Assembly (NCBI GenBank): GCA_028711675.1
Contig: JAQTRT010000002.1
Coordinates: forward strand, 1-39,063
DNA length: 39,063 bases
Direction of reading: 5' to 3'
From: a bacterium
GTDB taxonomy: Bacteria; Spirochaetota; JAHITG01
The position numbers were made by a program, and so were the translations under genes. Below the pieces are notes generated by a model that saw only the letters and a program-made list of their open reading frames with translations, had not been told where the DNA came from and made no database searches. Position 1 is the stretch's first letter, and every line of letters starts with the position of its first letter. Positions 9,682 through 33,358 of the stretch are shown one piece after another.

Positions 9682-10143
9682 TCAGTAACCGGACCTTTTA
9701 CCGGTGAGCGGAGAGATATCAACCTTTATAACGCTGACTTTTTTCAATGCTTCTTTAGAGAAAGAGAATTTTCCAGTCCGCGGATATTTCCTTATGATAC
9801 ATTCAAGGGCTTTCTTTTTTTTAGCGGGATCTGTCATCACACTGGCCCGGCCGTATCCGATGACGCTGAGATAACGCATCCTCCAGTTACAGGGACGGAC
9901 GGACCGGACAACCCTGGTCCTGATATCCGTTTCAAAGCAGACATTTTTATTCTTCCTCAGCATATCCATTTTTTTCCCTTCCGAGGCCGAATGAAGATAA
10001 AGGCAGGAACCGTCATATCCGAAATTCATAGGCACGATATAAGGTTCACGGCCCAGGCAGAAGCCCACACGGCAGACCCGGGCTTCATGAAGGATGGCAT
10101 TTATTTCCCTTCTCCCTGTGATCTCCTTATCTTTTCTCCGCAT
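9682..10143 (-). CDS. Pyridoxamine 5'-phosphate oxidase-like FMN-binding split-barrel protein (Nim/Pyridox_ox_2-like)
   Basis: MRRKDKEITGRREINAILHEARVCRVGFCLGREPYIVPMNFGYDGSCLYLHSASEGKK matches the family N-terminal pattern, and the size is ~150 aa. The start codon overlaps the stop of the upstream gene (TAATG). Confidence 0.75.
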   Translation of the reverse strand: MRRKDKEITGRREINAILHEARVCRVGFCLGREPYIVPMNFGYDGSCLYLHSASEGKKMDMLRKNKNVCFETDIRTRVVRSVRPCNWRMRYLSVIGYGRASVMTDPAKKKKALECIIRKYPRTGKFSFSKEALKKVSVIKVDISPLTGKRSGY

Positions 10144-10955
10144 TATTTTTTATACTCCTTCTCAAAGAGCGCCAGGGCTTCGGGCAGTTTAATACGGAAG
10201 ATCCCCTGAAAAACAGACCTGTCATGCCTGGGATCTTTAATGTACCGGGAAAGGAATACCCGGAATTTCTCCGGCCCGTATGTTTCGACAAGATACTGGA
10301 TAAAGTACCTGTACAGTGTGTAATTGAACCCGGGTGCCATGGGATCAAGGTTAGAATAAATATCCCTGTTGTTTTCCTGGTAAGTGAACTTCTTTTTTTT
10401 CCATTCCCGTACGAACTCATTACGGGTCATGTAATACGGTCCCCCGAAATAACAGGCTGTTCCCTCAGAAACCCAGTGCTGGCCTGTGATCCTCATGGAT
10501 TTCAAGATCCCGGTGTTCTGCTGGACGAGGCTGTGGCAAAGTTCATGCCTGATGTACTGGGGCTCCTTTCTTCCGCTGCGAACGATACGCGGCTGGTCGA
10601 TATAAACAACATCGCCTGTCTCAAGTGCCCTGCCGCCCATCCCGTAATTCCTCATCCAAAGCATGATACGGCCCATCTCACTGAACCGGCCTTTGTCATC
10701 CAGGGCCACAAAGACCTTCACAGGTTTCCTGTATTTCAGGCCGTACAGCTTTTCTGCTTCAGCCATGATCCTGTCGATCGTATGATACACAGGGTCCAGT
10801 TTGTTCTTATCACGGATGAACACAACAGCTTTCCGGGACCTGATCTGATGATATCCCGGCCTGAGAGGGCTCCAGGGCAGCAACGGACCATAGAGAAATA
10901 AAAAAATGATTAAAAGGAACGGAACGAGCAGAAGAACTATTGTGCGCTTTTTCAT
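10143..10955 (-). CDS. Membrane-anchored putative zinc metallopeptidase (peptidase MA-like, HExxH + downstream E)
   Basis: HExxH motif (IRHELCHSLV) followed by WVSEGTACYF, the gluzincin-type third ligand context. An N-terminal TM/signal segment is present (KKRTIVLLLVPFLLIIFLFLY). ATG 10955 is preceded by AAGAGG. The longer ORF to 10985 would run into the inverted repeat. Confidence 0.5.
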   Translation of the reverse strand: MKKRTIVLLLVPFLLIIFLFLYGPLLPWSPLRPGYHQIRSRKAVVFIRDKNKLDPVYHTIDRIMAEAEKLYGLKYRKPVKVFVALDDKGRFSEMGRIMLWMRNYGMGGRALETGDVVYIDQPRIVRSGRKEPQYIRHELCHSLVQQNTGILKSMRITGQHWVSEGTACYFGGPYYMTRNEFVREWKKKKFTYQENNRDIYSNLDPMAPGFNYTLYRYFIQYLVETYGPEKFRVFLSRYIKDPRHDRSVFQGIFRIKLPEALALFEKEYKK

Positions 10956-10967
10956 GACAACCTCTTG

Positions 10968-11068
10968 GGGGACGGTGCTTGACATTTTGACATTTTGTCA
11001 GGGATACTGAAACAGATGGGGAAAATAAGTTATTTTATTAAAATGTCAAAATGTCAAGCACCGTCCCC
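10968..11068. repeat. Perfect 29-bp inverted repeat with a 43-nt spacer; each arm contains tandem TTGACATT units
   Basis: The left arm GGGGACGGTGCTTGACATTTTGACATTTT (10968-10996) is the exact reverse complement of 11040-11068. The repeat fills the gap between the stop of the 11068-11727 gene and the RBS of the 10143-10955 gene. Confidence 0.9.
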
Positions 11069-11727
11069 TATTTTATCTTAAAATCTTTCAGGGTACAGTT
11101 GAACATGTTCCAGTTTATTCCGTACATCATGTATTTTTTCAGGTCTACCCTCTCCGGGATATAGAACGCATCCTGCTTTCTGAATGTGACCCCGATCTCA
11201 TATTTCTCGTTCCTGTCCATGACCATAAGCTGGTTGGTTCCCAAGGGACAAAGAGTGATATCGCTGAATTTACCGTTGAGAAAAAGGGTATGGGACGGTT
11301 TATCCGGCAGGACCTTGGCAATAAAGGAATGGACAAAGGCCAGCAGAGAATTGCTCTTGTTCCGGTTCGTATAATCCTGCCGGTTCGTCTGGAAGCCGCT
11401 GTACCGTACATATCCGACTACATTGGATAAAAAAACGATATTCTCGTATGACAGCTTGTTCCCGCTGCTGGTCCGGATATCATCGCGCAACGAATCCATC
11501 CCTGTCTGCCAGGAGCACCGGTCCTCCTGTTGAAAGTCGATCAAACCGCTGGCCGTTATCCGGACCCTGGCTGTCACATGATTGGAATAATGGACAAGCC
11601 GGATCTGCCCGATGGACAGGGAGCCCAGATTAAGGATATAATCGATCTGGTAGACCGCCTGTAAAGGACCAAGACCTCCTCCCAACAGAAGTAAACCAAG
11701 CACACGGATCCCTTTTCCTATTCCCAT
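11068..11727 (-). CDS. Hypothetical secreted protein (possibly DUF3108-like)
   Basis: Signal-like N-terminus (GIRVLGLLLLGGGLGPLQA). I recognise no catalytic motif, and the family guess is weak. Confidence 0.4.
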   Translation of the reverse strand: MGIGKGIRVLGLLLLGGGLGPLQAVYQIDYILNLGSLSIGQIRLVHYSNHVTARVRITASGLIDFQQEDRCSWQTGMDSLRDDIRTSSGNKLSYENIVFLSNVVGYVRYSGFQTNRQDYTNRNKSNSLLAFVHSFIAKVLPDKPSHTLFLNGKFSDITLCPLGTNQLMVMDRNEKYEIGVTFRKQDAFYIPERVDLKKYMMYGINWNMFNCTLKDFKIK

Positions 11728-18783: not shown

Positions 18784-19968
18784 TTAAAAATAATACCTTA
18801 TACCCAGACTGATATCCAGGCCATTGGCCGAATAATCATTGATGAACCAGTGGAAAAAATCCACCTGGCAGAGGAATCCCAGCTGGTTGAACCTGATCCT
18901 CGTATTCCCGATATAGAAAAGGCCCGGATATACGGTATATTCAATGCCGGCCCCAGCCTGGAGAACCGCATTAATGGAGGAGGAAGACTCTTTCTCCGTT
19001 CCCAGGCCGGAATAATAGGTATGGATCAGGCCGGCCCCTGCTCCTATTGAAACAAAAGGCGAGAGACGGTTGATGCGCGTATCAAAACGAAAAATAAAAC
19101 TAAAAATAACGGGCAAATAAGTATTGTAGGTATACTTTTTTAAAGGATCATCTTCAGCACCGGATTGAAGGGAAGGGATAAGCATAAGGTCGATCTGATT
19201 GTAGAGGTTACGGACCCCCCAGATGGGGAGTCTGAAAAGCAGATTAATATCATGGCTCCAGCCATTCTCGGACCGTTTTCCCATCTCCCCCAGTCCCATG
19301 AAATAGCCCGGTCTGTATCCCAGAGCCCAGGACTGGACCCTCTGTTCATAGGGATTCAGCCATTTGAACTCTTTTTTTTCTTTCAGCGTGGGTTCGGAAT
19401 AATCTCCTTTCTCAATGGTAGCCACCAGGGTCTCGCTCACATATTTAAGGCATCCTTTCATGCCGGATGTCCACAATATGGCCTTGCTCCTGCTCTCCAC
19501 GAGAAAGAACGTTATATCAATATAACTTGTTTCAAAATCCTTGCCTTCGTAAAAACGGGCGATCTTGCCGTACAGGTACGCGTCCATGGTCTTGACCGGA
19601 GTCTGGGAGGTCTCTATCCGGTTCTTGATTTTTTTCTCGTCATATTCAGGAATATATTTTCCCCGCTGAACGGAAAGGCTGTCCTCCTCTGTCTGGCTTA
19701 ATTTCTCATCAGCATCCGCGATCTGGACCTTGTTCAGCCTGTAAAACCTGTCCAACAGGGACTGGTGGAACCGTTCGCTTATCTCCAGATAATCCACAAG
19801 TTCAGCACGGCCGGAATTGACCAGCTTGGCATCAAAATGAAAAAGGGCAAGGGATTTAATGTTCTGTATCCGGTTATCCGGAAGGACATCTGTTTCAATG
19901 AGGGGTTCGGAAAAAAGTGCAGGAGTGAATAGAAAAAAAAGAAAGATTATTTTTTTCATCATAATCAA
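18784..19968 (-). CDS. Outer-membrane protein: N-terminal periplasmic domain plus C-terminal beta-barrel
   Basis: Signal peptide (KKIIFLFFLFTPALFS). The C-terminal half has alternating aromatic/Gly-rich strands and ends in GIRYYF, the terminal-Phe signature of outer-membrane proteins. Confidence 0.45.
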   Translation of the reverse strand: MIMMKKIIFLFFLFTPALFSEPLIETDVLPDNRIQNIKSLALFHFDAKLVNSGRAELVDYLEISERFHQSLLDRFYRLNKVQIADADEKLSQTEEDSLSVQRGKYIPEYDEKKIKNRIETSQTPVKTMDAYLYGKIARFYEGKDFETSYIDITFFLVESRSKAILWTSGMKGCLKYVSETLVATIEKGDYSEPTLKEKKEFKWLNPYEQRVQSWALGYRPGYFMGLGEMGKRSENGWSHDINLLFRLPIWGVRNLYNQIDLMLIPSLQSGAEDDPLKKYTYNTYLPVIFSFIFRFDTRINRLSPFVSIGAGAGLIHTYYSGLGTEKESSSSINAVLQAGAGIEYTVYPGLFYIGNTRIRFNQLGFLCQVDFFHWFINDYSANGLDISLGIRYYF

Positions 19969-20046
19969 GAAAAACAGGGGAAGGGAGGATGGGAACGGAA
20001 GGGAACAGGAAAGGATTAACTCCCCTGTTCCCGTTATCCGTTTCTA

Positions 20047-20505
20047 TTATTCAAAACCAGCTTCTGCCATTTTTTTCAGGCCTTTTTTCTCGATCCTGTA
20101 AACGACCGAGCAGTTATCTTCTTCGTCATATGTGGTCTTGACGATATTACCGCCTTTTCCGTAGCCGTCAATGGTCTTTAAGGCCACTTCACCCAGGCCG
20201 ACACCGGATTCAGCGCCGCCCTTGGCTTTTAAGGCGTATCCCTTAAAGAGTTCCATGGCTCTTGTCTGAGCCTTTAACAAAGCTCCTTCTTTGGCTCTGT
20301 TCCTCTTGATAACTTTTTTCGCGTTCTCCAGCTCCTCGGGATAGGTTCCTTCAGCTATAACCTGGAACGTATCATCATCCAGAAAACCTTCTGTCTGATA
20401 ATCGTCTCCTTTAATATAGGATTCTGTTCCGGGTTCGGAACCGCAGCCTACCATAAAGGAAAGAAGAGCACCAGCAAACAGGAAGAAAAGTATTTTCTTG
20501 CTCAT
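20047..20505 (-). CDS. Small lipoprotein, LPP20/FlgP-like
   Basis: Lipobox LSFMVGC. ATG 20505 lies 8 nt downstream of GGAGG. The helical segment RNRAKEGALLKAQTRAMELFKGYAL fits the LPP20-type pattern. The family call is weak. Confidence 0.4.
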   Translation of the reverse strand: MSKKILFFLFAGALLSFMVGCGSEPGTESYIKGDDYQTEGFLDDDTFQVIAEGTYPEELENAKKVIKRNRAKEGALLKAQTRAMELFKGYALKAKGGAESGVGLGEVALKTIDGYGKGGNIVKTTYDEEDNCSVVYRIEKKGLKKMAEAGFE

Positions 20506-20527
20506 GGAATTCACCTCCTTTTATTAT

Positions 20528-21757
20528 TTATTTATTCACAACGCTCACTGAGACAAGACCGAAATCATACTTTAATACGTTCACCTGATAAGGAAATGTT
20601 TCTTTGGTGGTCAGGGCAGTGGCCAGGTCCCTCGGTGTGCCCAGGAATTTTACAGTGAAAACGGATTGGTTCCCTTTTTTCTGTTTGGAATAAACCTCTT
20701 TCACCTCCCGGAAATAGCTCTTCAGGTCCTTGGAAAATTTCAGTTCTGCGGTCAGGGTAAGGCCGCTGGCATAAAGAGTGATAAGATTGCCGTTGTTCAG
20801 GATGTCCTCCCAGGCTGTGAGGATCTGGTTGACCAGGTCGTCCGCCGCCATCTCCGAGGCTTTCTGGATGGCGTTGATACCGCCTGTGGCATTGTTGATA
20901 TGAACCGCTGCTCCGTGTTTGGTGGAAGTGGCTATGATGCGGCCGTCGCCTACGTTCACGACCTTAAAATCCATGTCTGCCTGGAATGATTTCATCTGCG
21001 TGGAATACGCGCTGAGAGCGCCTTCGGCCTCCTTGCTGAACCCTTTGCCCACAATGACCACATCCGCGTTCACTTCAGTCCCCAGTTTTCCGGCTGCAGA
21101 AATGAACTCGTTCTCATCCCCTTCAATGGAGGAATAAAGACCGGATATCAGTTTCTTGTATTCAGCTCCCACATCGGAAGGGCTGATGATGGTAAATTTC
21201 TTCTCGGTGAATTTTTTTACCAGGACATTATAGGACGCATTCTGCTTGGACTCCTGGCCTAAATTTTTCTCATTGATGAAAATGATCACCTTGGGCATGC
21301 TCATGCGGTGCTGCATGATGTCCAGAGCCATCACGTCATCCTTCAGTTTCTGCAAACCCACCACGGCCGTCACCGTGACATAAGCCACGCCGTCATCTAT
21401 TTTCTTCGACTTGATCTCATACTTCTTAATATAGCCCTGTTTCTTGGCATAGATATTCTCTTCCAGGATCACTCCGCTCTCTCCCAGGATACGGGCGTCG
21501 ATGATGGTACCCAGAGCCTGCTCAATGCATTTCCGCAGCGCATTCTCAATGGCTCTGTCGTACGCTTCATCTTTTCCCGCTGAGCGCACCTCAGCCATGC
21601 CTTCCGCGGTCTCTGTTTTTGTCCCCTGTCCGCCGATCTGGTCGGCGCTGCCGAACGAAAACTCATCATCTTTTTTCTGTTTTTCGCTGCTGGCGCAGGA
21701 AATAAACCCGAAAACCATCATGATAATCACCATTTTTATGATCAGGGCTCTTTTCAT
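20528..21757 (-). CDS. Lipoprotein with an LPP20/FlgT-N-like N-terminal domain
   Basis: Lipobox GFISC. The segment AEGMAEVRSAGKDEAYDRAIENALRKCIEQALGTIIDARIL fits the LPP20/FlgT_N-like pattern. GGAG lies 10 nt upstream of the ATG, and only 13 nt separate this gene from the next. The family call is weak. Confidence 0.4.
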   Translation of the reverse strand: MKRALIIKMVIIMMVFGFISCASSEKQKKDDEFSFGSADQIGGQGTKTETAEGMAEVRSAGKDEAYDRAIENALRKCIEQALGTIIDARILGESGVILEENIYAKKQGYIKKYEIKSKKIDDGVAYVTVTAVVGLQKLKDDVMALDIMQHRMSMPKVIIFINEKNLGQESKQNASYNVLVKKFTEKKFTIISPSDVGAEYKKLISGLYSSIEGDENEFISAAGKLGTEVNADVVIVGKGFSKEAEGALSAYSTQMKSFQADMDFKVVNVGDGRIIATSTKHGAAVHINNATGGINAIQKASEMAADDLVNQILTAWEDILNNGNLITLYASGLTLTAELKFSKDLKSYFREVKEVYSKQKKGNQSVFTVKFLGTPRDLATALTTKETFPYQVNVLKYDFGLVSVSVVNK

Positions 21758-21807
21758 AATATTGATCTCCTTGATTGTTTAATGAACATTGACAGGCATA
21801 TCCATAC

Positions 21808-21835
21808 AGTATATCCCGTTTTACTTTAAAGTCAA
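21808..21835 (-). promoter_or_regulatory. Promoter for the lipoprotein operon: TTGACT-N16-TATACT
   Basis: On the minus strand, -35 is at 21830-21835 and -10 at 21808-21813. It lies between structured element A and the 21757 start. Confidence 0.4.
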
Positions 21836-21867
21836 GAAAAAAAAGGGTGTGTACTATATAAATACTT

Positions 21868-22011
21868 AAAGGGGTGAAATTGATATTTGTTTTTTTCTCA
21901 TTCTCACGCCCCATCCGTGGGGTGCTGCGAGGGTTCCGCCGGTTTTCACATCCTTGTGAAAACGACGGCTCCACAAACCGAAAAAAAAACAAATATCAAC
22001 TCCACCCCTTT
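21868..22011 (-). ncRNA. Unclassified structured element, copy A (candidate structured RNA, alternatively a MITE-like repeat)
   Basis: Homologous to 28689-28848 in the opposite orientation. A 29-bp closing stem joins 21868-21896 and 21983-22011. Read as minus-strand RNA, its two imperfect positions are G-U wobbles; on the plus strand they would be A-C mismatches. Internal hairpins lie at 21942-21963 and 21905-21924. Confidence 0.45.
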
Positions 22012-27765: not shown

Positions 27766-28599
27766 ATGATAAAAAAATTAAAAATAAGGATATTCAATAT
27801 CCTGGAAGGCCGCGATCCGGAAGACAGACCGGCCAGACTGTTCCAGGTCTTCATCATGAGCCTCATCATCCTGAACGTTCTGGCCATGATCCTGGAGACC
27901 GTACAGCAGATCTGGCTGAGGTATAAACTGTATTTCCATATTTTTGACGTATTCTCAGTCATGGTTTTTACTCTTGAATACATGCTGCGGATCTGGACAT
28001 GCCCCCTGAATAAAAGATATAAACATCCCATCAAAGGCCGGATGCGGTTCATCCTGACGCCTTTGGCCCTTGTAGACCTGCTGGCCATCCTTCCGTTTTA
28101 CCTGCCCATGATATTCCCGTTCGACCTGAAATTCATCAGGGTGATCCGGCTGCTCCGCTTTTTCAGGCTCTTTAAAATGGCACGGTATTCAGACGCGGTC
28201 GTAACCCTGGTCAATGTCCTGAAAGCCAAGAAGGAAGAACTGGGCATCACTATATTCGTGGTTTTCACTCTGCTGATATTATCCTCCAGTCTGATGTATT
28301 TTATCGAGCACAGCGTTCAACCCAAGGCCTTTTCCAGCATCCCGGCCTCCATGTGGTGGGGGGTTTCCACATTGACCACGGTCGGGTATGGCGATGTCTA
28401 TCCCCAGACCCCTATGGGAAAACTCCTGGGAGCAGTCATCGCATTTCTGGGTATAGGAATTTTTGCCCTGCCGACCGGTATCCTGGCATCCGGATTTGCC
28501 GAGGAGATCCAGAAAAAGCATGCTAAAGAAAAAAAAAGAGGGGGCATCTGCCCGCACTGCGGAAAGAGGATAAAACAACAGAATAATCTAAATTTTTAG
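27766..28599 (+). CDS. Voltage-gated-type (6TM) potassium channel
   Basis: S4-like FIRVIRLLRFFRLFKMARY and selectivity filter TLTTVGYGD. GGAG lies upstream of ATG 27766. The short C-terminal tail contains CPHCGKRI. Confidence 0.85.
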   Translation: MIKKLKIRIFNILEGRDPEDRPARLFQVFIMSLIILNVLAMILETVQQIWLRYKLYFHIFDVFSVMVFTLEYMLRIWTCPLNKRYKHPIKGRMRFILTPLALVDLLAILPFYLPMIFPFDLKFIRVIRLLRFFRLFKMARYSDAVVTLVNVLKAKKEELGITIFVVFTLLILSSSLMYFIEHSVQPKAFSSIPASMWWGVSTLTTVGYGDVYPQTPMGKLLGAVIAFLGIGIFALPTGILASGFAEEIQKKHAKEKKRGGICPHCGKRIKQQNNLNF

Positions 28600-28627
28600 C
28601 TGGAAAACCAGGAATAATTACCTTTTT

Positions 28628-28656
28628 TTGGAATTATAAAATAAAACCCATACAAT
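28628..28656 (+). promoter_or_regulatory. Candidate promoter upstream of structured element B: TTGGAA-N17-TACAAT
   Basis: -35 at 28628-28633 and -10 at 28651-28656. The predicted TSS is about 25 nt upstream of the element. Confidence 0.3.
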
Positions 28657-28688
28657 GTATCGCATCCTCCCCCCTTCCTCTGAGAGGT

Positions 28689-28848
28689 AATGGATCGACA
28701 ATATTTTCTGGTTTTTCGGTTTGTGAAGCCGTCGTTTTCACAGGATGTGAAAACAGGCCGAAGGTACCCTCCGGAGTACGGAACCCTCGGAGCGACACAT
28801 GGATGTGTCGCGAGAATGAGAAAAAACAGAAAATATTGTCGATCCATT
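28689..28848 (+). ncRNA. Unclassified structured element, copy B (candidate structured RNA, alternatively a MITE-like repeat)
   Basis: A perfect 22-bp closing stem (AATGGATCGACAATATTTTCTG / CAGAAAATATTGTCGATCCATT) extends about 6 bp further after one mismatch. Hairpin 28734-28754 is GTTTTCACA-GGA-TGTGAAAAC. Hairpin 28792-28811 is GCGACACA-TGGA-TGTGTCGC. An extra hairpin sits at 28758-28774. Confidence 0.45.
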
Positions 28849-28864
28849 GTCGTGAAAAAACTAC

Positions 28865-28892
28865 TTGCTTTTAAAAACCAAACCATTATAAT
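28865..28892 (+). promoter_or_regulatory. Promoter for the dehydrogenase-asd genes: TTGCTT-N16-TATAAT
   Basis: -35 at 28865-28870 and -10 at 28887-28892. It lies downstream of element B and upstream of the GGAGG/ATG at 28937. Confidence 0.4.
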
Positions 28893-28936
28893 TATTTACA
28901 TTTTACTCTTATTTCGTATAGTTTGGAGGCTGAAAA

Positions 28937-29998
28937 ATGTATAAAATCGCGGTGATCGCCGGTGACGGCACCGGCCCGGAAATGGTAAAGGAGGGACTGA
29001 AGGTACTGAAAGCTGTTTCCGATGTAAAAGGCATTCAATTTGATTATAAGCAATATGATTTTGGCTCCAACCGTTATCTTCAAACAGGCGAAACCCTTCC
29101 GGATTCAGCTGTTTCGGAATTGAAGCAGTTCGACGCCATCTACCTGGGCGCTATCGGCGACCCGCGCGTGGCTCCCGGGATCCTGGAACAGGGCATCCTT
29201 TTAAAACTGAGGTTCGAACTGGACCTGTACATCAACCTCAGGCCTGTGAAACTTTACCCCGGTGTCGAGACCCCTTTAAAGGATAAAGGGCCGAAGGATA
29301 TCGATTTTATCGTTGTCCGGGAGAACACGGAGAGCCTGTATATCGGTGCCGGCGGTTTTTTAAAAAAAGGCACGCAGGATGAAGTGGCCATGCAGAACAT
29401 GATCATGACCCGGAAAGGCACGGAACGCTGTATCCGGTACGCCTTTGACCTTACGCGCAGGAGGAACAAGGAGAAAAAACTAACCCTGTGCGGGAAGACC
29501 AACGTGCTCACTTATGCCTGGAACCTGTGGGAACGCACGTTCAACGAAGTGGCCGGGGAATACAAGGACATCAAGACCGATTATGCCCATGTGGATGCCA
29601 CGACCATGTGGTTTGTGAAGAACCCGGAATGGTTCGACGTGATCGTAACGGACAACATGTTCGGCGACATCATCACGGACCTGGGCGCCATGATCCAGGG
29701 CGGGATGGGCGTGGCAGCCGGCGGTAATATCAATCCTCAAGGCGTTTCCATGTTCGAGCCCATCAGCGGCTCAGCACCCAAGTATGCCGGCAAGAACGTG
29801 ATCAATCCCATTGCCACGATCATGGCCGGTCAGATGATGATCGATTTCCTCGGCGAACACGAGGCAGCGGCCCTGATCGAAGAAGCCGTAATGGACACGA
29901 TCAAAAAAATGAAATCCATGTCAGCCGGCAAGATGGGTATGGGTACGGATGAAGTGGGTGACCGCGTCGCTGAATACATAAAAAAGAAAGGAAAATAA
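28937..29998 (+). CDS. Isopropylmalate/tartrate/D-malate dehydrogenase family enzyme (3-isopropylmalate dehydrogenase candidate)
   Basis: [41 protein letters not shown] and [14 protein letters not shown]. The layout resembles the TtuC/archaeal-type LeuB branch. GGAGG lies upstream of the start. Confidence 0.8.
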
Positions 29999-30074
29999 AA
30001 AAAGACGTTTTTGGTTCTTTATTGAACCTGGAACCATGAACAAAGAACTTACGAATAAAAAGGAGAAATGAGCT

Positions 30075-31094
30075 ATGTCGAAGTATATTGTGGCTGTTGT
30101 GGGTGCCACCGGTGCTGTAGGACGGGAAATGATCAAGACCCTTCTTCAGCGGAAATTCCCGTTTAAGTCCCTCCGCTTATTCGCCTCCAGCAGGTCGAAA
30201 GGCTTCAAGATCAAGGTAGGCGAAAGGGAGGTCGAGGTCGAGGAACTGACCGAAGACTCGTTCACCAATTCCAAGATCCAGTTCGCACTTTTTTCCGCCG
30301 GAGCCGACCGGAGCAAGAAATTCGCTCCCCTGGCAGCGAAGAACCATGTGGTGGTCATTGACAACAGCAGCGCGTTCCGCATGGACGAGGATGTACCGCT
30401 GGTGGTCCCCGAGGTAAATCCGGATGACATCAAGAACCACAAGGGTATCATTGCCAATCCCAACTGTTCAACTATCCAGATGGTCGTAGCCCTGAAGCCC
30501 CTGTATGACGCAAGCCGGATCCGGCGCGTGGTCGTCACTACCTTCCAGTCCGTTTCCGGTGCAGGGCTGAAGGCCATGAACGAACTCCGGACCCAGTCCG
30601 AAGCTTATCTGCAGAATGCGCAGATCGTTATTGATAAATTCCCGTACCAGATCGCTTTTAACTGTATCCCGCAGATCGGCGATTTCATGGAGGACGGGTA
30701 CAGCAAGGAAGAAGAAAAGATGGTCCTGGAGACCAGGAAGATCATGGGCGACAAGGAGATCAGGATTTCGCCCACAACGGTCCGCGTCCCGGTCTTCACC
30801 GGCCACAGTGAATCCGTGAACATCGAAACCGAGACCAAGATCACCCGGAAGGAAGCCATGGCCATCTTAAAGAAGGCTCCCGGCGTTACTGTCGTGGATG
30901 ATGTGGAAAAATTAAAATATCCTCTGCCTATAGATTGCGAAGGAAAGGATGATGTTTTTGTGGGAAGGATCCGCGAGGATAATTCCGTTGAGAACGGCCT
31001 GAACATGTGGGTCGTCTCCGACAACCTGAGAAAAGGAGCTGCCTTGAACGCGGTCCAGATCGCCGAACACATGGTAAAGAAAAAACTGGTTTAA
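30075..31094 (+). CDS. asd: Aspartate-semialdehyde dehydrogenase
   Basis: VAVVGATGAVGREM, IANPNCSTIQMV (active-site Cys), FQSVSGAG and VPVFTGHSESV. Confidence 0.93.
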   Translation: MSKYIVAVVGATGAVGREMIKTLLQRKFPFKSLRLFASSRSKGFKIKVGEREVEVEELTEDSFTNSKIQFALFSAGADRSKKFAPLAAKNHVVVIDNSSAFRMDEDVPLVVPEVNPDDIKNHKGIIANPNCSTIQMVVALKPLYDASRIRRVVVTTFQSVSGAGLKAMNELRTQSEAYLQNAQIVIDKFPYQIAFNCIPQIGDFMEDGYSKEEEKMVLETRKIMGDKEIRISPTTVRVPVFTGHSESVNIETETKITRKEAMAILKKAPGVTVVDDVEKLKYPLPIDCEGKDDVFVGRIREDNSVENGLNMWVVSDNLRKGAALNAVQIAEHMVKKKLV

Positions 31095-31146
31095 GTTCAG
31101 ACAAGAACCGTGAACCGGCAGGATATATGGGTTTTACAACGGTTTA

Positions 31147-31213
31147 AGCGATAAATTCCGAAAAGGAATTTATCGCTCCTGATTCATGGCTGAGTTTTTC
31201 ATGAATGGTTTTT
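31147..31213 (+). terminator. Tandem hairpins downstream of asd (putative intrinsic terminator)
   Basis: The first hairpin is a 13-bp perfect stem, AGCGATAAATTCC-GAAAA-GGAATTTATCGCT (31147-31177). The second is ATTCATG...CATGAAT (31182-31206), followed by GGTTTTTG. Confidence 0.5.
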
Positions 31214-31264
31214 GATCCTGTTAATCCTGTTTAAAATTTTACCTTTAGGTTTAAGGAGGATCGT

Positions 31265-33358
31265 ATGGCAGACATCTTACCTCAAAACATCAGGAATATC
31301 GCGGTGATCGGGAATAACGGGGCGGGAAAGACCTCTCTGTCCGACGCGATACTGTTCGATTCCAAAACAGCCAAACGCCTGGGAAAAGTTGATGAAAAAA
31401 CATCGGCTTTTGATTTTCTGGAAGAAGAGATCAAAAGAAAGATGACCATCACCATCTCCCTGGCCCAGTTCCCCTATAAGGAAAAAAAGATAAACCTGAT
31501 AGATACTCCCGGATACATGGATTTCATCGGGGAAGCCATTTCCGCCCTGTATGCCGTGGAAACAGCCGTGGCCGTGGTAGCAGCAGGTGATGCCGCGCAG
31601 TTCAACACCATCAAACTCCTGAGCGATGCCCAGAAACGCGGCATGGCCAGGATCATCTTCATCAACAAAATCGATAAAGAGAACATTAATTACGAAGAGG
31701 CCCTGGAAAAGCTGAAGGAGAACATCCCTTCCGGGACCATGCCCGTCACCATCCCGGCCAAAGAAGGAAACCAGGTCACAGGCGTGATCAACCTCCTGGA
31801 CAATAAACTGTATGCCGTAAACAACGAGAACACGGAGATCAGGGACATACCGGAGGCCCTGAAAGGGACAGCCGACGTTTTCCGGATCAAAATGCTGGAG
31901 GCTGTGGCGGAAACAAAAGAAGACCTGATGGAAAAATATCTTGAAAAAGGGAGCCTGACCGAGGAAGAGCTTACCAAAGGATTAAAAGAAGGGCTGCTCA
32001 GCGGTTCCATCATACCTGTTTTCTGCGGAATAGCCGTCCGTAACATCGGGACCGCACCCCTGCTCCATTTTCTGGAAACATCCGCGCCTTCACCCCTGGA
32101 CAAGGGTAAAATTAAGGTAAAAAAAATCGAAACGGGTTCCGAGATCGAATCCAGCGTGGATGAAAAAGCGCCGGCCAAGGCCTTTGTCTTCAAGACCCAG
32201 ACCGAACCCCATATCGGAGAACTAAATTTCGTCAGGGTCTTCTCCGGCACCATCAATTACGGCGACGAGATTTATAACTCCTCAAAAAGCTTTTCCGAAA
32301 AAGTGGGGACCCTCGATAACCTGATCGGTAAGGAAAGAAAGGAAGTCAAGACTGTCGCAGCCGGCGATATCGCTGTTCTGCTGAAACTGAAGAAAACAGC
32401 CATTAACGACACATTATGCTCTCCTTCCGAAAAAATGGAATTTCCCAGGATCGATTTTCCCCGGCCTTTGCTCGACCTGGCCATCAAGGCCAAATCCAAG
32501 GCTGACGAGGATAAATTATCCGTTAACCTTCACAAGCTTCTGGAAGAGGACCCTACACTCAAGATCAGGGTGGATTCCGAACTGAAGCAAACCATCATCA
32601 GCGGCATGGGCGAGACCCAGATCAATATTTTTGTGGCGAACCTGAAAAACAAGTACAATGTGGAAGTGGAATTCGAAAAGACCAAGGTACCTTACCGCGA
32701 GACCATCAAGAAAAAAGCCCAGGCCCAGGGCAGGTATAAAAGGCAGACCGGCGGCCATGGACAGTACGGCGACTGCTGGCTCGAGATCGAACCCCTGCCC
32801 ATGAACCACAAGGAAGATTTCGAGTTCGTGGACAAGATCGTGGGCGGGTCCATCCCCGGCAAATATGTTCCGGCTGTGGAAAAAGGCGTACGGGAAAAAC
32901 TGACCAAAGGGCTCCTGGCCGGTTATCCGGTCATTAAGGTACGGGCTTCTGTTTATGACGGCACCTACCATTCCGTGGATTCATCGGACCTGGCCTTTCA
33001 GATTGCCGGCTCCCTGGCGCTCCAGAACGCGGCGCCATCCGCCAATCCCGTTCTCCTGGAACCTGTCATGAAAGTAAAGGTCTACACACCGGATAAGTAT
33101 ATGGGTGATATCATCAGCGACCTTAACAGCCGCCGGGCTAAAATATCGGGAATGGACGACGAATCCGGGCTGAAGGTGGTCAATGCTTTCGTGCCCCAGG
33201 CGGAAATGTTCAAGTACATCAATGACCTTAAATCCATCACCCAGGGCAGCGGGATATTCGAAAGCGCATTTGACCATTATGAGGAAGTCCCGTTCGAACT
33301 GAGCAAGAAGATCGTTGAGCAGGCCAAACTGGAAAAAGGTACAGAAGAGGAAAAATAG
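31265..33358 (+). CDS. Elongation factor G paralog (EF-G2-like translational GTPase)
   Basis: G1 GNNGAGKTS, G3 DTPGYMDF and G4 INKID. KVPYRETIKKKAQAQGRYKRQTGGHGQYGDCWLEIEP and SSDLAFQIAGSLA closely parallel Thermus EF-G-2 as I recall it. The gene is not in an rpsL-rpsG-fusA context. Confidence 0.85.
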   Translation: MADILPQNIRNIAVIGNNGAGKTSLSDAILFDSKTAKRLGKVDEKTSAFDFLEEEIKRKMTITISLAQFPYKEKKINLIDTPGYMDFIGEAISALYAVETAVAVVAAGDAAQFNTIKLLSDAQKRGMARIIFINKIDKENINYEEALEKLKENIPSGTMPVTIPAKEGNQVTGVINLLDNKLYAVNNENTEIRDIPEALKGTADVFRIKMLEAVAETKEDLMEKYLEKGSLTEEELTKGLKEGLLSGSIIPVFCGIAVRNIGTAPLLHFLETSAPSPLDKGKIKVKKIETGSEIESSVDEKAPAKAFVFKTQTEPHIGELNFVRVFSGTINYGDEIYNSSKSFSEKVGTLDNLIGKERKEVKTVAAGDIAVLLKLKKTAINDTLCSPSEKMEFPRIDFPRPLLDLAIKAKSKADEDKLSVNLHKLLEEDPTLKIRVDSELKQTIISGMGETQINIFVANLKNKYNVEVEFEKTKVPYRETIKKKAQAQGRYKRQTGGHGQYGDCWLEIEPLPMNHKEDFEFVDKIVGGSIPGKYVPAVEKGVREKLTKGLLAGYPVIKVRASVYDGTYHSVDSSDLAFQIAGSLALQNAAPSANPVLLEPVMKVKVYTPDKYMGDIISDLNSRRAKISGMDDESGLKVVNAFVPQAEMFKYINDLKSITQGSGIFESAFDHYEEVPFELSKKIVEQAKLEKGTEEEK

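Follow-up and report, generated by a model that had tools for sequence, protein, structure and literature searches.

TwoAYGGAY RNA, catalogued by Weinberg et al. in 2010, takes its name from two terminal loops with the sequence AYGGAY, which are carried on hairpins of the form ACAUGGAUGU or ACACGGAUGU (PMC2864571). Its closing helix, P1, is "often very large (e.g. 24 base pairs)" (PMC2864571 supplement) and varies between copies; Psychromonas ingrahamii has several copies in its genome and human-gut metagenomes have many, and the copies of both sources have near-identical flanks (PMC2864571). Published loops also deviate from the name, for example to CAGGGAUG and CACGAUG, junction sequences vary widely among the subfamilies, and the motif was scored as a probable RNA that is not cis-regulatory, with a reported range of Clostridiales, gamma-proteobacteria and the human gut metagenome (PMC2864571). 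Here we describe two copies, A and B, of an intergenic element that resembles this motif, found in a 39,063-nt stretch of DNA from a Spirochaetota-like bacterium (contig JAQTRT010000002.1 of assembly GCA_028711675.1; "the window" below). Our reading, held at about even confidence and drawn from nucleotide sequence, is that A and B represent a lineage-specific, divergent TwoAYGGAY-like RNA which would act as a decoy for the RNA-binding protein CsrA.

The consensus ligand of CsrA, obtained by systematic evolution of ligands by exponential enrichment (SELEX), is RUACARGGAUGU, whose GGA lies in the loop of a hairpin (PMC4347634; also PMC8668096), and it had been quoted correctly in the earlier note on this DNA that led to the present analysis. 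On the strength of its GGA loops, Gardner and Eldai proposed in 2015 that TwoAYGGAY is a CsrA-sequestering small RNA, which they termed a testable hypothesis; the same paper predicted Bacillaceae-1 RNA, a small RNA that carries a pair of GGA hairpins and is a candidate ligand of CsrA (PMC4333381). The earlier note thus arrived anew at a CsrA hypothesis that was already in print. The Rfam 15 paper reports structural refinement only for TwoAYGGAY, and as late as 2025 a preprint describes it as "relatively unexplored". CsrA itself is present in cultured spirochetes, usually together with FliW (PMC8668096).

Two copies of a two-armed intergenic element

Copy B lies on the plus strand and copy A on the opposite strand, 6.7 kb apart; no third copy was found in the 39-kb window. 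Each consists of a long closing helix, P1, around a two-armed core. The parts of copy B are as follows:

28689..28848, plus strand: whole copy B, 160 nt, long closing helix P1 and two-armed core
28689..28717, plus strand: 5' arm of P1; the outer 12 nt are unlike copy A, the inner ATATTT...TTTTTC is common to both copies
28717..28731, plus strand: conserved segment CGGTTTGTGAAGCCG
28734..28754, plus strand: hairpin 1, GTTTTCACA-GGA-TGTGAAAAC, with a 9-bp stem and the loop GGA (ACA-GGA-UGU)
28755..28779, plus strand: B-specific insertion of 21-24 nt, absent from A, between hairpin 1 and CGGAACC
28758-28774, plus strand: small hairpin of the insertion, CCGAAGG-TAC-CCTCCGG
28779..28789, plus strand: conserved CGGAACCCTCG, 3' half of the lower helix of arm I and 5' strand of the base of arm II
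28792..28811, plus strand: hairpin 2, GCGACACA-TGGA-TGTGTCGC, with an 8-bp stem and the loop UGGA (ACA-U-GGA-UGU), which fits AYGGAY
28812..28826, plus strand: conserved junction strand GAGAATGAGAAAAAA, the same in A
28820..28848, plus strand: 3' arm of P1

Copy A comprises the corresponding parts:

21868..22011, minus strand: whole copy A, 144 nt
21980..22011, minus strand: 5' arm of P1, 32 nt; the arms are 91% complementary
21942..21963, minus strand: hairpin 1, GTTTTCACA-AGGA-TGTGAAAAC, with a 9-bp stem and the loop AGGA (ACA-A-GGA-UGU)
21906..21925, minus strand: hairpin 2, GCACCCCA-CGGA-TGGGGCGT, with the loop CGGA (CCA-C-GGA-UGG), which fits AYGGAY
21868..21897, minus strand: 3' arm of P1, ending in CACCCCTTT

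The hairpins, loops, insertion and promoter hexamers of the earlier note were all recovered where it had placed them. The closing duplex of ~29 bp in copy B, which it had called perfect, is not so: the 29-nt arms, which enclose 102 nt, are 97% complementary and contain one G.A mismatch.

The cores of the two copies (A, 21883-21996, minus strand; B, 28701-28836, plus strand) align with a mean column identity of 85%, and differ by a 1-nt indel in the hairpin 1 loop, the 21-nt insertion in B and several changes in the stem of hairpin 2, where two of the pairs that differ are compensated. The outer 12-15 nt of P1 read AAAGGGGTGGAGTTG in A and AATGGATCGACA in B, and are unrelated between the copies and complementary inside each. 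A covariance model built on A and B together, designated R2, scores copy B at 164 bits, a value that follows from its construction. For the 181 nt around copy B the folding energy is -79.3 kcal/mol, compared with -43.8 +/- 3.9 kcal/mol for dinucleotide shuffles (z = -9.1).

A consensus fold of both cores contains 37 pairs, three of which have changed on both sides and yet remain paired, two have changed to wobble pairs, and none is broken. In this fold P1 is a helix of 29-32 bp, variable towards its outer end and semi-conserved further in (ATATTT...TTTTTC / GAAAAA...AAATAT), where indels are compensated. It leads into a three-way junction, closed by UUUUUC/GAGAAA, in which each hairpin stands on a separate lower helix. 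Arm I has a lower helix of GGUU/AACC and CCG/CGG around the internal loop UGUGRAG and is topped by hairpin 1, GUUUUCACA-(A)GGA-UGUGAAAAC. Arm II has the base CUC/GAG, a 3-nt bulge and hairpin 2 on top with the loop YGGA, and the 3' strand of the junction, GAGAAUGAGAAAAAA, is conserved. The segment CGGTTTGTGAAGCCG of copy B forms a small hairpin in the minimum-energy fold, and in the consensus fold contributes the 5' side of arm I's lower helix (GGUU/AACC, CCG/CGG).

The copies also carry information on the strand that is read. In copy A the gene-sense strand folds at -75.5 kcal/mol and the other at -62.9 kcal/mol, with six G-U pairs versus two; the two G-U pairs formed by the 5' arm of its P1 become C.A mismatches when read on the other strand. 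Each copy runs in the same direction as the genes on either side of it, and GGA stands in the loops on the gene-sense strand only. The compensatory changes and the asymmetry in G-U pairs together indicate an RNA with the same sense as the flanking genes. A protein-coding reading, suggested by open reading frames at 28690-28944 (plus strand) and 21666-21992 (minus strand), was rejected because the 1-nt indel in hairpin 1 and the 21-nt insertion break any shared frame.

The insertion of copy B resembles the core segment next to it: GGTACCCTCCGGAG and GGAACCCT-CGGAG are identical at 12 of 14 aligned columns, a score equalled by ~3% of shuffles. It is therefore read as probably an imperfect tandem duplication of that adjacent segment, and the additional GGA triplets that it brings look like by-products of a small duplication. 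On the minus strand the same positions (28758-28774) form a better hairpin, with seven pairs including one G-U, followed by CCTGTTTTCA, and were flagged as terminator-like in a scan; this is probably incidental to the duplication.

Comparison with TwoAYGGAY and other RNA families

The whole window returned no Rfam match at gathering thresholds, and an E-value search of 28500-29000 returned nothing useful. When copy A was searched alone (152-nt search), it matched RF01731 (TwoAYGGAY) at 35.2 bits (E = 2e-4) over the entire model, positions 1-168, and on the expected strand, while the second-best family reached 18.9 bits. As a control, the same search was applied to a perfect 29-bp inverted repeat elsewhere in the window (10968-11068), which gave spurious matches of 30-39 bits to many microRNA-precursor models and none to TwoAYGGAY; the match of copy A must therefore reflect more than the presence of a long stem. 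A second model, R1, was restricted to the core and built from ten sequences of the 2010 alignment with P1 and copies A and B excluded. Scanned over the window with filters off, its top three matches were copy A (16.9 bits, E 0.011) and copy B twice (12.6 bits each time, E 0.21), on the right strand; these matches are weak and partial.

Local matches to two other families were obtained with copy B. Its hairpin 2 matches a hairpin of RsmV (CGACACAgGGAUGUGUC, 14.8 bits, E 0.018), and according to the search output TwoAYGGAY and RsmV belong to the same Rfam clan, CL00106. The reverse complement of its hairpin 1 (28734-28751, minus strand) matches Bacillaceae-1 (RF01690) over 18 nt at 15.2 bits, in line with the published observation that CsrA-type sites are found on the reverse complement of Bacillaceae-1. 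This match is short and local, and Bacillaceae-1 differs from the element in having no long P1, another overall architecture and another taxon. The earlier note had read the element as a CsrA/Rsm-type decoy or target, and the comparison with the library, which places copy A with TwoAYGGAY and hairpin 2 of copy B with RsmV, agrees with such an affiliation.

The resemblance to TwoAYGGAY extends beyond the score. The element has a long P1 that varies between copies (32-nt arms in A, 29-nt arms in B) and, in its consensus fold, a three-way arrangement with two hairpins whose terminal loops have the form (C)A-N-GGA-U(G). It is intergenic and multi-copy, with two copies in 39 kb beside unrelated genes. 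An internal loop GA...GAAU occurs by hairpin 2 in one gut subfamily and is matched here by GA...GAGAAU. The junction sequences differ, as they do among the published subfamilies: those of the present element (CGGUUUGUGRAGCCGUC, CGGAACCCUCG and GAGAAUGAG) are unlike the published members compared. Further differences are that each hairpin here has its own lower helix, whereas in the family one short P2 encloses both; that the loop of hairpin 1 is AAGGAU or GGA, whereas hairpin 2 fits the family loop in both copies (ACGGAU and AUGGAU); and that the Spirochaetota-like host lies outside the reported range. The element is not a new class; it is best described as a divergent version of the catalogued TwoAYGGAY motif.

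Other structured elements were considered and rejected. 6S RNA, Y RNA, retron, bridge RNA, omega-RNA and attC found no support in Rfam, and no reverse transcriptase, recombinase or transposase gene lies nearby. The inverted repeat used as a control is unrelated to the TwoAYGGAY-like element: it consists of GGGGACGGTGCTTGACATTTTGACATTTT and its complement around a 43-nt loop, carries a tandem GACATTTT repeat in each arm, and sits between minus-strand open reading frames at 10143-10985 and 11068-11727, where it is possibly a terminator or an operator.

GGA loops and a candidate CsrA decoy

The loops and their closing pairs are the features that connect the element with CsrA. As the earlier note had observed, the hairpins match the CsrA consensus: ACA-(N)-GGA-UGU is present in three of the four, the fourth (hairpin 2 of A) being CCA-C-GGA-UGG. 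The pattern ACA.?GGATGT occurs three times over both strands of the 39-kb window, always inside A or B, whereas an estimated ~0.15 occurrences would be expected by chance. Looser hairpins with a GGA loop are not enriched in the window (26, versus ~17 in shuffles, with a maximum of 30).

The number of sites is smaller than first proposed. The three to five GGA sites of the earlier note, and its likening of the element to a sponge of the RsmY/RsmZ/CsrB type, are overstated. B has six GGA triplets and A has five. Only the two in the hairpin loops are at once conserved and free of pairing; CGGAACC, also conserved, is base-paired in the consensus fold, and the remaining triplets are copy-specific, those of the insertion presumably stemming from its duplication. 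The sponge small RNAs of the Csr/Rsm systems have from four to ~22 GGA sites, GacA/UvrY-dependent promoters and intrinsic terminators, and lack a long closing helix. The element shares with CsrB, CsrC, RsmX, RsmY, RsmZ and RsmV the display of GGA in hairpin loops of the ACA-N-GGA-UGU type and, putatively, the titration of CsrA/RsmA; it differs from them in its two conserved sites, the lack of a conserved promoter and of a terminator, and the presence of a 29-32-bp closing helix. Two conserved loop sites are most naturally matched with a single CsrA dimer per RNA, in contrast to multi-site sponges such as CsrB and RsmZ.

Judged on motif resemblance only, a CsrA decoy is the most likely function, and we propose the following model for its action. 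Each copy would be transcribed in the direction of its flanking genes, copy A probably by read-through from the upstream HD-domain gene and copy B either by read-through or from a weak promoter of its own. The RNA would fold as a Y. A closing helix of 29-32 bp, unconstrained in sequence, would be followed by a short inner helix, and the two arms would each be capped by a hairpin exposing GGA in a loop of 3-4 nt with ACA/UGU-type closing pairs, predicted to be an optimal CsrA ligand. As the CsrA homodimer has two RNA-binding faces, the paired hairpins would clamp one dimer per RNA, and the clamped protein would be titrated off its mRNAs. The long helix may serve as a nuclease barrier, or as a site at which RNase III processing would release the core from a longer transcript; cleavage of P1 by RNase III is plausible, as pure inference.

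Genomic position, dispersal and implications

Copy A begins 32 nt past the stop codon of the HD-domain gene and ends 110 nt before the start codon of a gene for a 409-aa protein; copy B follows an ion-channel gene, beginning 89 nt past its stop codon, and ends 88 nt short of the leuB start codon. The promoter-like sites around them are:

28628..28656, plus strand: candidate sigma-70-like promoter upstream of B, TTGGAA-17-TACAAT, matching the consensus at 9/12 positions
28865..28922, plus strand: leuB promoter region downstream of B, with TTGCTT-16-TATAAT (28865-28892) and TTTACA-16-TATAGT (28895-28922)
21808..21835, minus strand: promoter-like site of the gene downstream of A, TTGACT-16-TATACT (10/12), itself downstream of A

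The separate promoter that the earlier note assigned to B is thus present upstream, but it is a weak match and has no counterpart at A, before which no comparable promoter-like site was found. A proper U-tract, or any terminator-like site, is missing after P1 in both copies. Downstream of A lie three consecutive minus-strand genes (18784-21757; 409, 155 and 394 aa) without a Pfam match, and the 409-aa protein has a hydrophobic N-terminus (MKRALIIKMVIIMMVFGFI).

A cis-regulatory 5' leader, either a CsrA target or a riboswitch-like RNA acting on leuB (copy B) and on the gene for the 409-aa protein (copy A), would suit the placement of both copies upstream of a co-directional gene, 88 and 110 nt from the start codons. 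The promoter-like sites of both downstream genes stand between element and gene, however, and the elements are therefore unlikely to be 5' leaders; the earlier note had drawn this conclusion for B, and the same arrangement holds at A, which disfavors its alternative of a CsrA target. The leuB promoters are, moreover, recognizably similar in relatives that have no element, no Shine-Dalgarno sequence is overlapped by a GGA site, the genes that follow A and B are unrelated in function, and Weinberg et al. scored TwoAYGGAY as not cis-regulatory. A leader function is consequently very improbable. Both elements occupy a 3'-untranslated region or inter-operon position.

That position bears on another explanation, in which the RNA has the architecture described above and a partner other than CsrA. 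It would bind a different dimeric RNA-binding protein, or would serve the upstream genes in cis as a 3'-untranslated-region module for stability, termination or RNase III processing. Both copies do lie shortly past a co-directional stop codon (32 and 89 nt) and before the next promoter, as expected of a 3'-untranslated-region element, and in copy A the base of P1 is rich in G+C, with TTTAAGTATTT after it. In several gut-metagenome members of the family, the loop of hairpin 1 is CACGAUG and lacks GGA (PMC2864571 supplement), which is awkward for an obligatory two-site clamp and calls for caution about one on CsrA. A U-tract terminator after P1 is nonetheless missing from both copies, and a pure stability hairpin needs neither conserved loops nor conserved junction strands. 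Loop and closing pairs match the SELEX optimum of CsrA in three of the four hairpins, and to our knowledge no other protein recognizes the ACA-N-GGA-UGU motif. We therefore regard a partner other than CsrA, or a purely cis-acting role, as unlikely.

The distribution of the element among relatives was examined at leuB. The leuB-asd-fusA locus (fusA encoding an EF-G paralogue; 28937-33358 in the window) is conserved in L027-L029, L033 and L035-L040, and the closest relatives, which are metagenome-assembled genomes, are 85% identical in LeuB and 77% in EF-G. The nearest proteins labelled "MAG: Spirochaetes bacterium" are 76% identical in LeuB and 64% and 60% in EF-G, and no protein at least 90% identical to LeuB or EF-G of the window was found in a collection of 15 billion proteins. 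One "MAG: Spirochaetes bacterium" contig carries a gene for DUF1577, which we take to be a domain typical of Leptospira. The genes upstream of leuB differ in every relative, and L029 has three tRNA genes there. Other, unrelated long palindromes lie upstream of leuB in the closest relatives: the one of L027 (1204-1307) stands just before the leuB promoter, in the position of copy B, and the one of L028 (about 9790-9840) ~150 nt before the leuB start. Intergenic hairpin repeats thus seem to turn over upstream of leuB in this lineage. The TwoAYGGAY-like element itself is missing from that site in the seven relatives whose sequence covers it, and is thus a recent, lineage-specific acquisition or expansion, which fits a dispersed repeat and speaks against a gene-specific regulator.

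A dispersed repeat need not be an RNA. Repetitive extragenic palindromic (REP) sequences, bacterial interspersed mosaic elements (BIMEs) and miniature inverted-repeat transposable elements (MITEs) are likewise repeated, intergenic, hairpin-forming and missing from orthologous sites in relatives, and the element could be a repeat of this REP/MITE type, selfish or neutral, that is maintained as DNA and whose GGA loops are a coincidence. Such a repeat would have arisen by insertion into, or growth of, hairpin-forming DNA, and template switching would keep its arms alike. The two copies 6.7 kb apart, confined to intergenic DNA, the absence from the orthologous leuB upstream site, where L027 and L028 have their own palindromes, the multiple copies with near-identical flanks of published TwoAYGGAY members, and the fact that copy B folds equally well on either strand would all suit this account. 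In the present element, however, it is the interior that is conserved and not the ends. The outer arms are wholly different between the copies, and there are no conserved terminal inverted repeats, no direct repeats flanking A or B and no transposase nearby; the MITE reading was rejected for the lack of shared termini and of a visible target-site duplication. The differences between the arms of copy A are compatible with G-U pairing on one strand only, by a margin of 12.6 kcal/mol, and this strand-specific pattern points to selection on RNA, while the stem of hairpin 2 has undergone two compensated changes with its loop kept. A repeat maintained purely as DNA is, in our estimation, improbable.

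Returning to the TwoAYGGAY-like CsrA decoy, several observations weigh against it. With respect to the family, the 35.2 bits of copy A fall below the TwoAYGGAY gathering score of 43, and copy B gives no TwoAYGGAY match at E <= 10. Long hairpins inflate cmscan E-values, as seen with the control repeat; neither the Rfam model nor R1 aligns both hairpins together, and much of the 35 bits comes from P1 and hairpin 1. Hairpin 1 departs from AYGGAY, with AAGGAU in A and a 3-nt GGA loop (A-GGAU) in B. The covariation evidence is thin, coming from two sequences only, and copy B yields no strand information (-76.2 vs -76.3 kcal/mol). With respect to distribution, the element is absent upstream of leuB in all seven relatives read or scanned there (L027, L028, L029, L034, L035, L036 and L039), of nine whose leuB-asd-fusA neighborhood was compared, and Rfam, R1 and R2 find no copy in ~149 kb from nine related contigs. 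Exact-pattern scans of genome, metagenome and viral collections revealed no homologue: 185,579 species genomes (TCGGYYYGTGRRRCCGTCGN{6,12}GGATG), the JGI metagenomes (AGCCGTCGNNNNCACAN{0,1}GGATGTG) and viral contigs (two patterns) gave chance matches only, a weak negative in that a single mismatch would hide a homologue. BLAST searches of A and B against plasmids and phages found nothing relevant. With respect to the partner, neither csrA nor fliW was found by tblastn in the window or in the 0.41 Mb of sequence examined, with hand-typed queries.

The element would acquire a wider role if decoy activity and dispersal were combined, making it at once a self-multiplying element and the first CsrA-antagonizing RNA of a Spirochaetota-like lineage. 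Its two-hairpin core would then spread into intergenic palindromes, and the buffering of CsrA would be set by copy number and by read-through from neighboring genes, in a phylum where the FliW protein is the only known counteractor of CsrA. We consider this extension quite doubtful.

For the family, the finding extends an uncharacterized RNA, catalogued since 2010 and predicted to be a CsrA decoy since 2015, to a new lineage. All that the divergent variant has retained in a distant, uncultured host is the long closing helix and the pair of ACA-N-GGA-UGU hairpins, with the junction sequences replaced; the retained features point to the long helix and the two hairpins as the functional core, and make a dimer-clamping decoy more credible. 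Such variants escape the Rfam model, and the TwoAYGGAY family is probably wider than listed. Both intergenic repeats should be annotated as TwoAYGGAY-like RNA instead of being left blank. If CsrA binding proves true, RNA-based antagonism of CsrA would extend beyond the gamma-proteobacteria.

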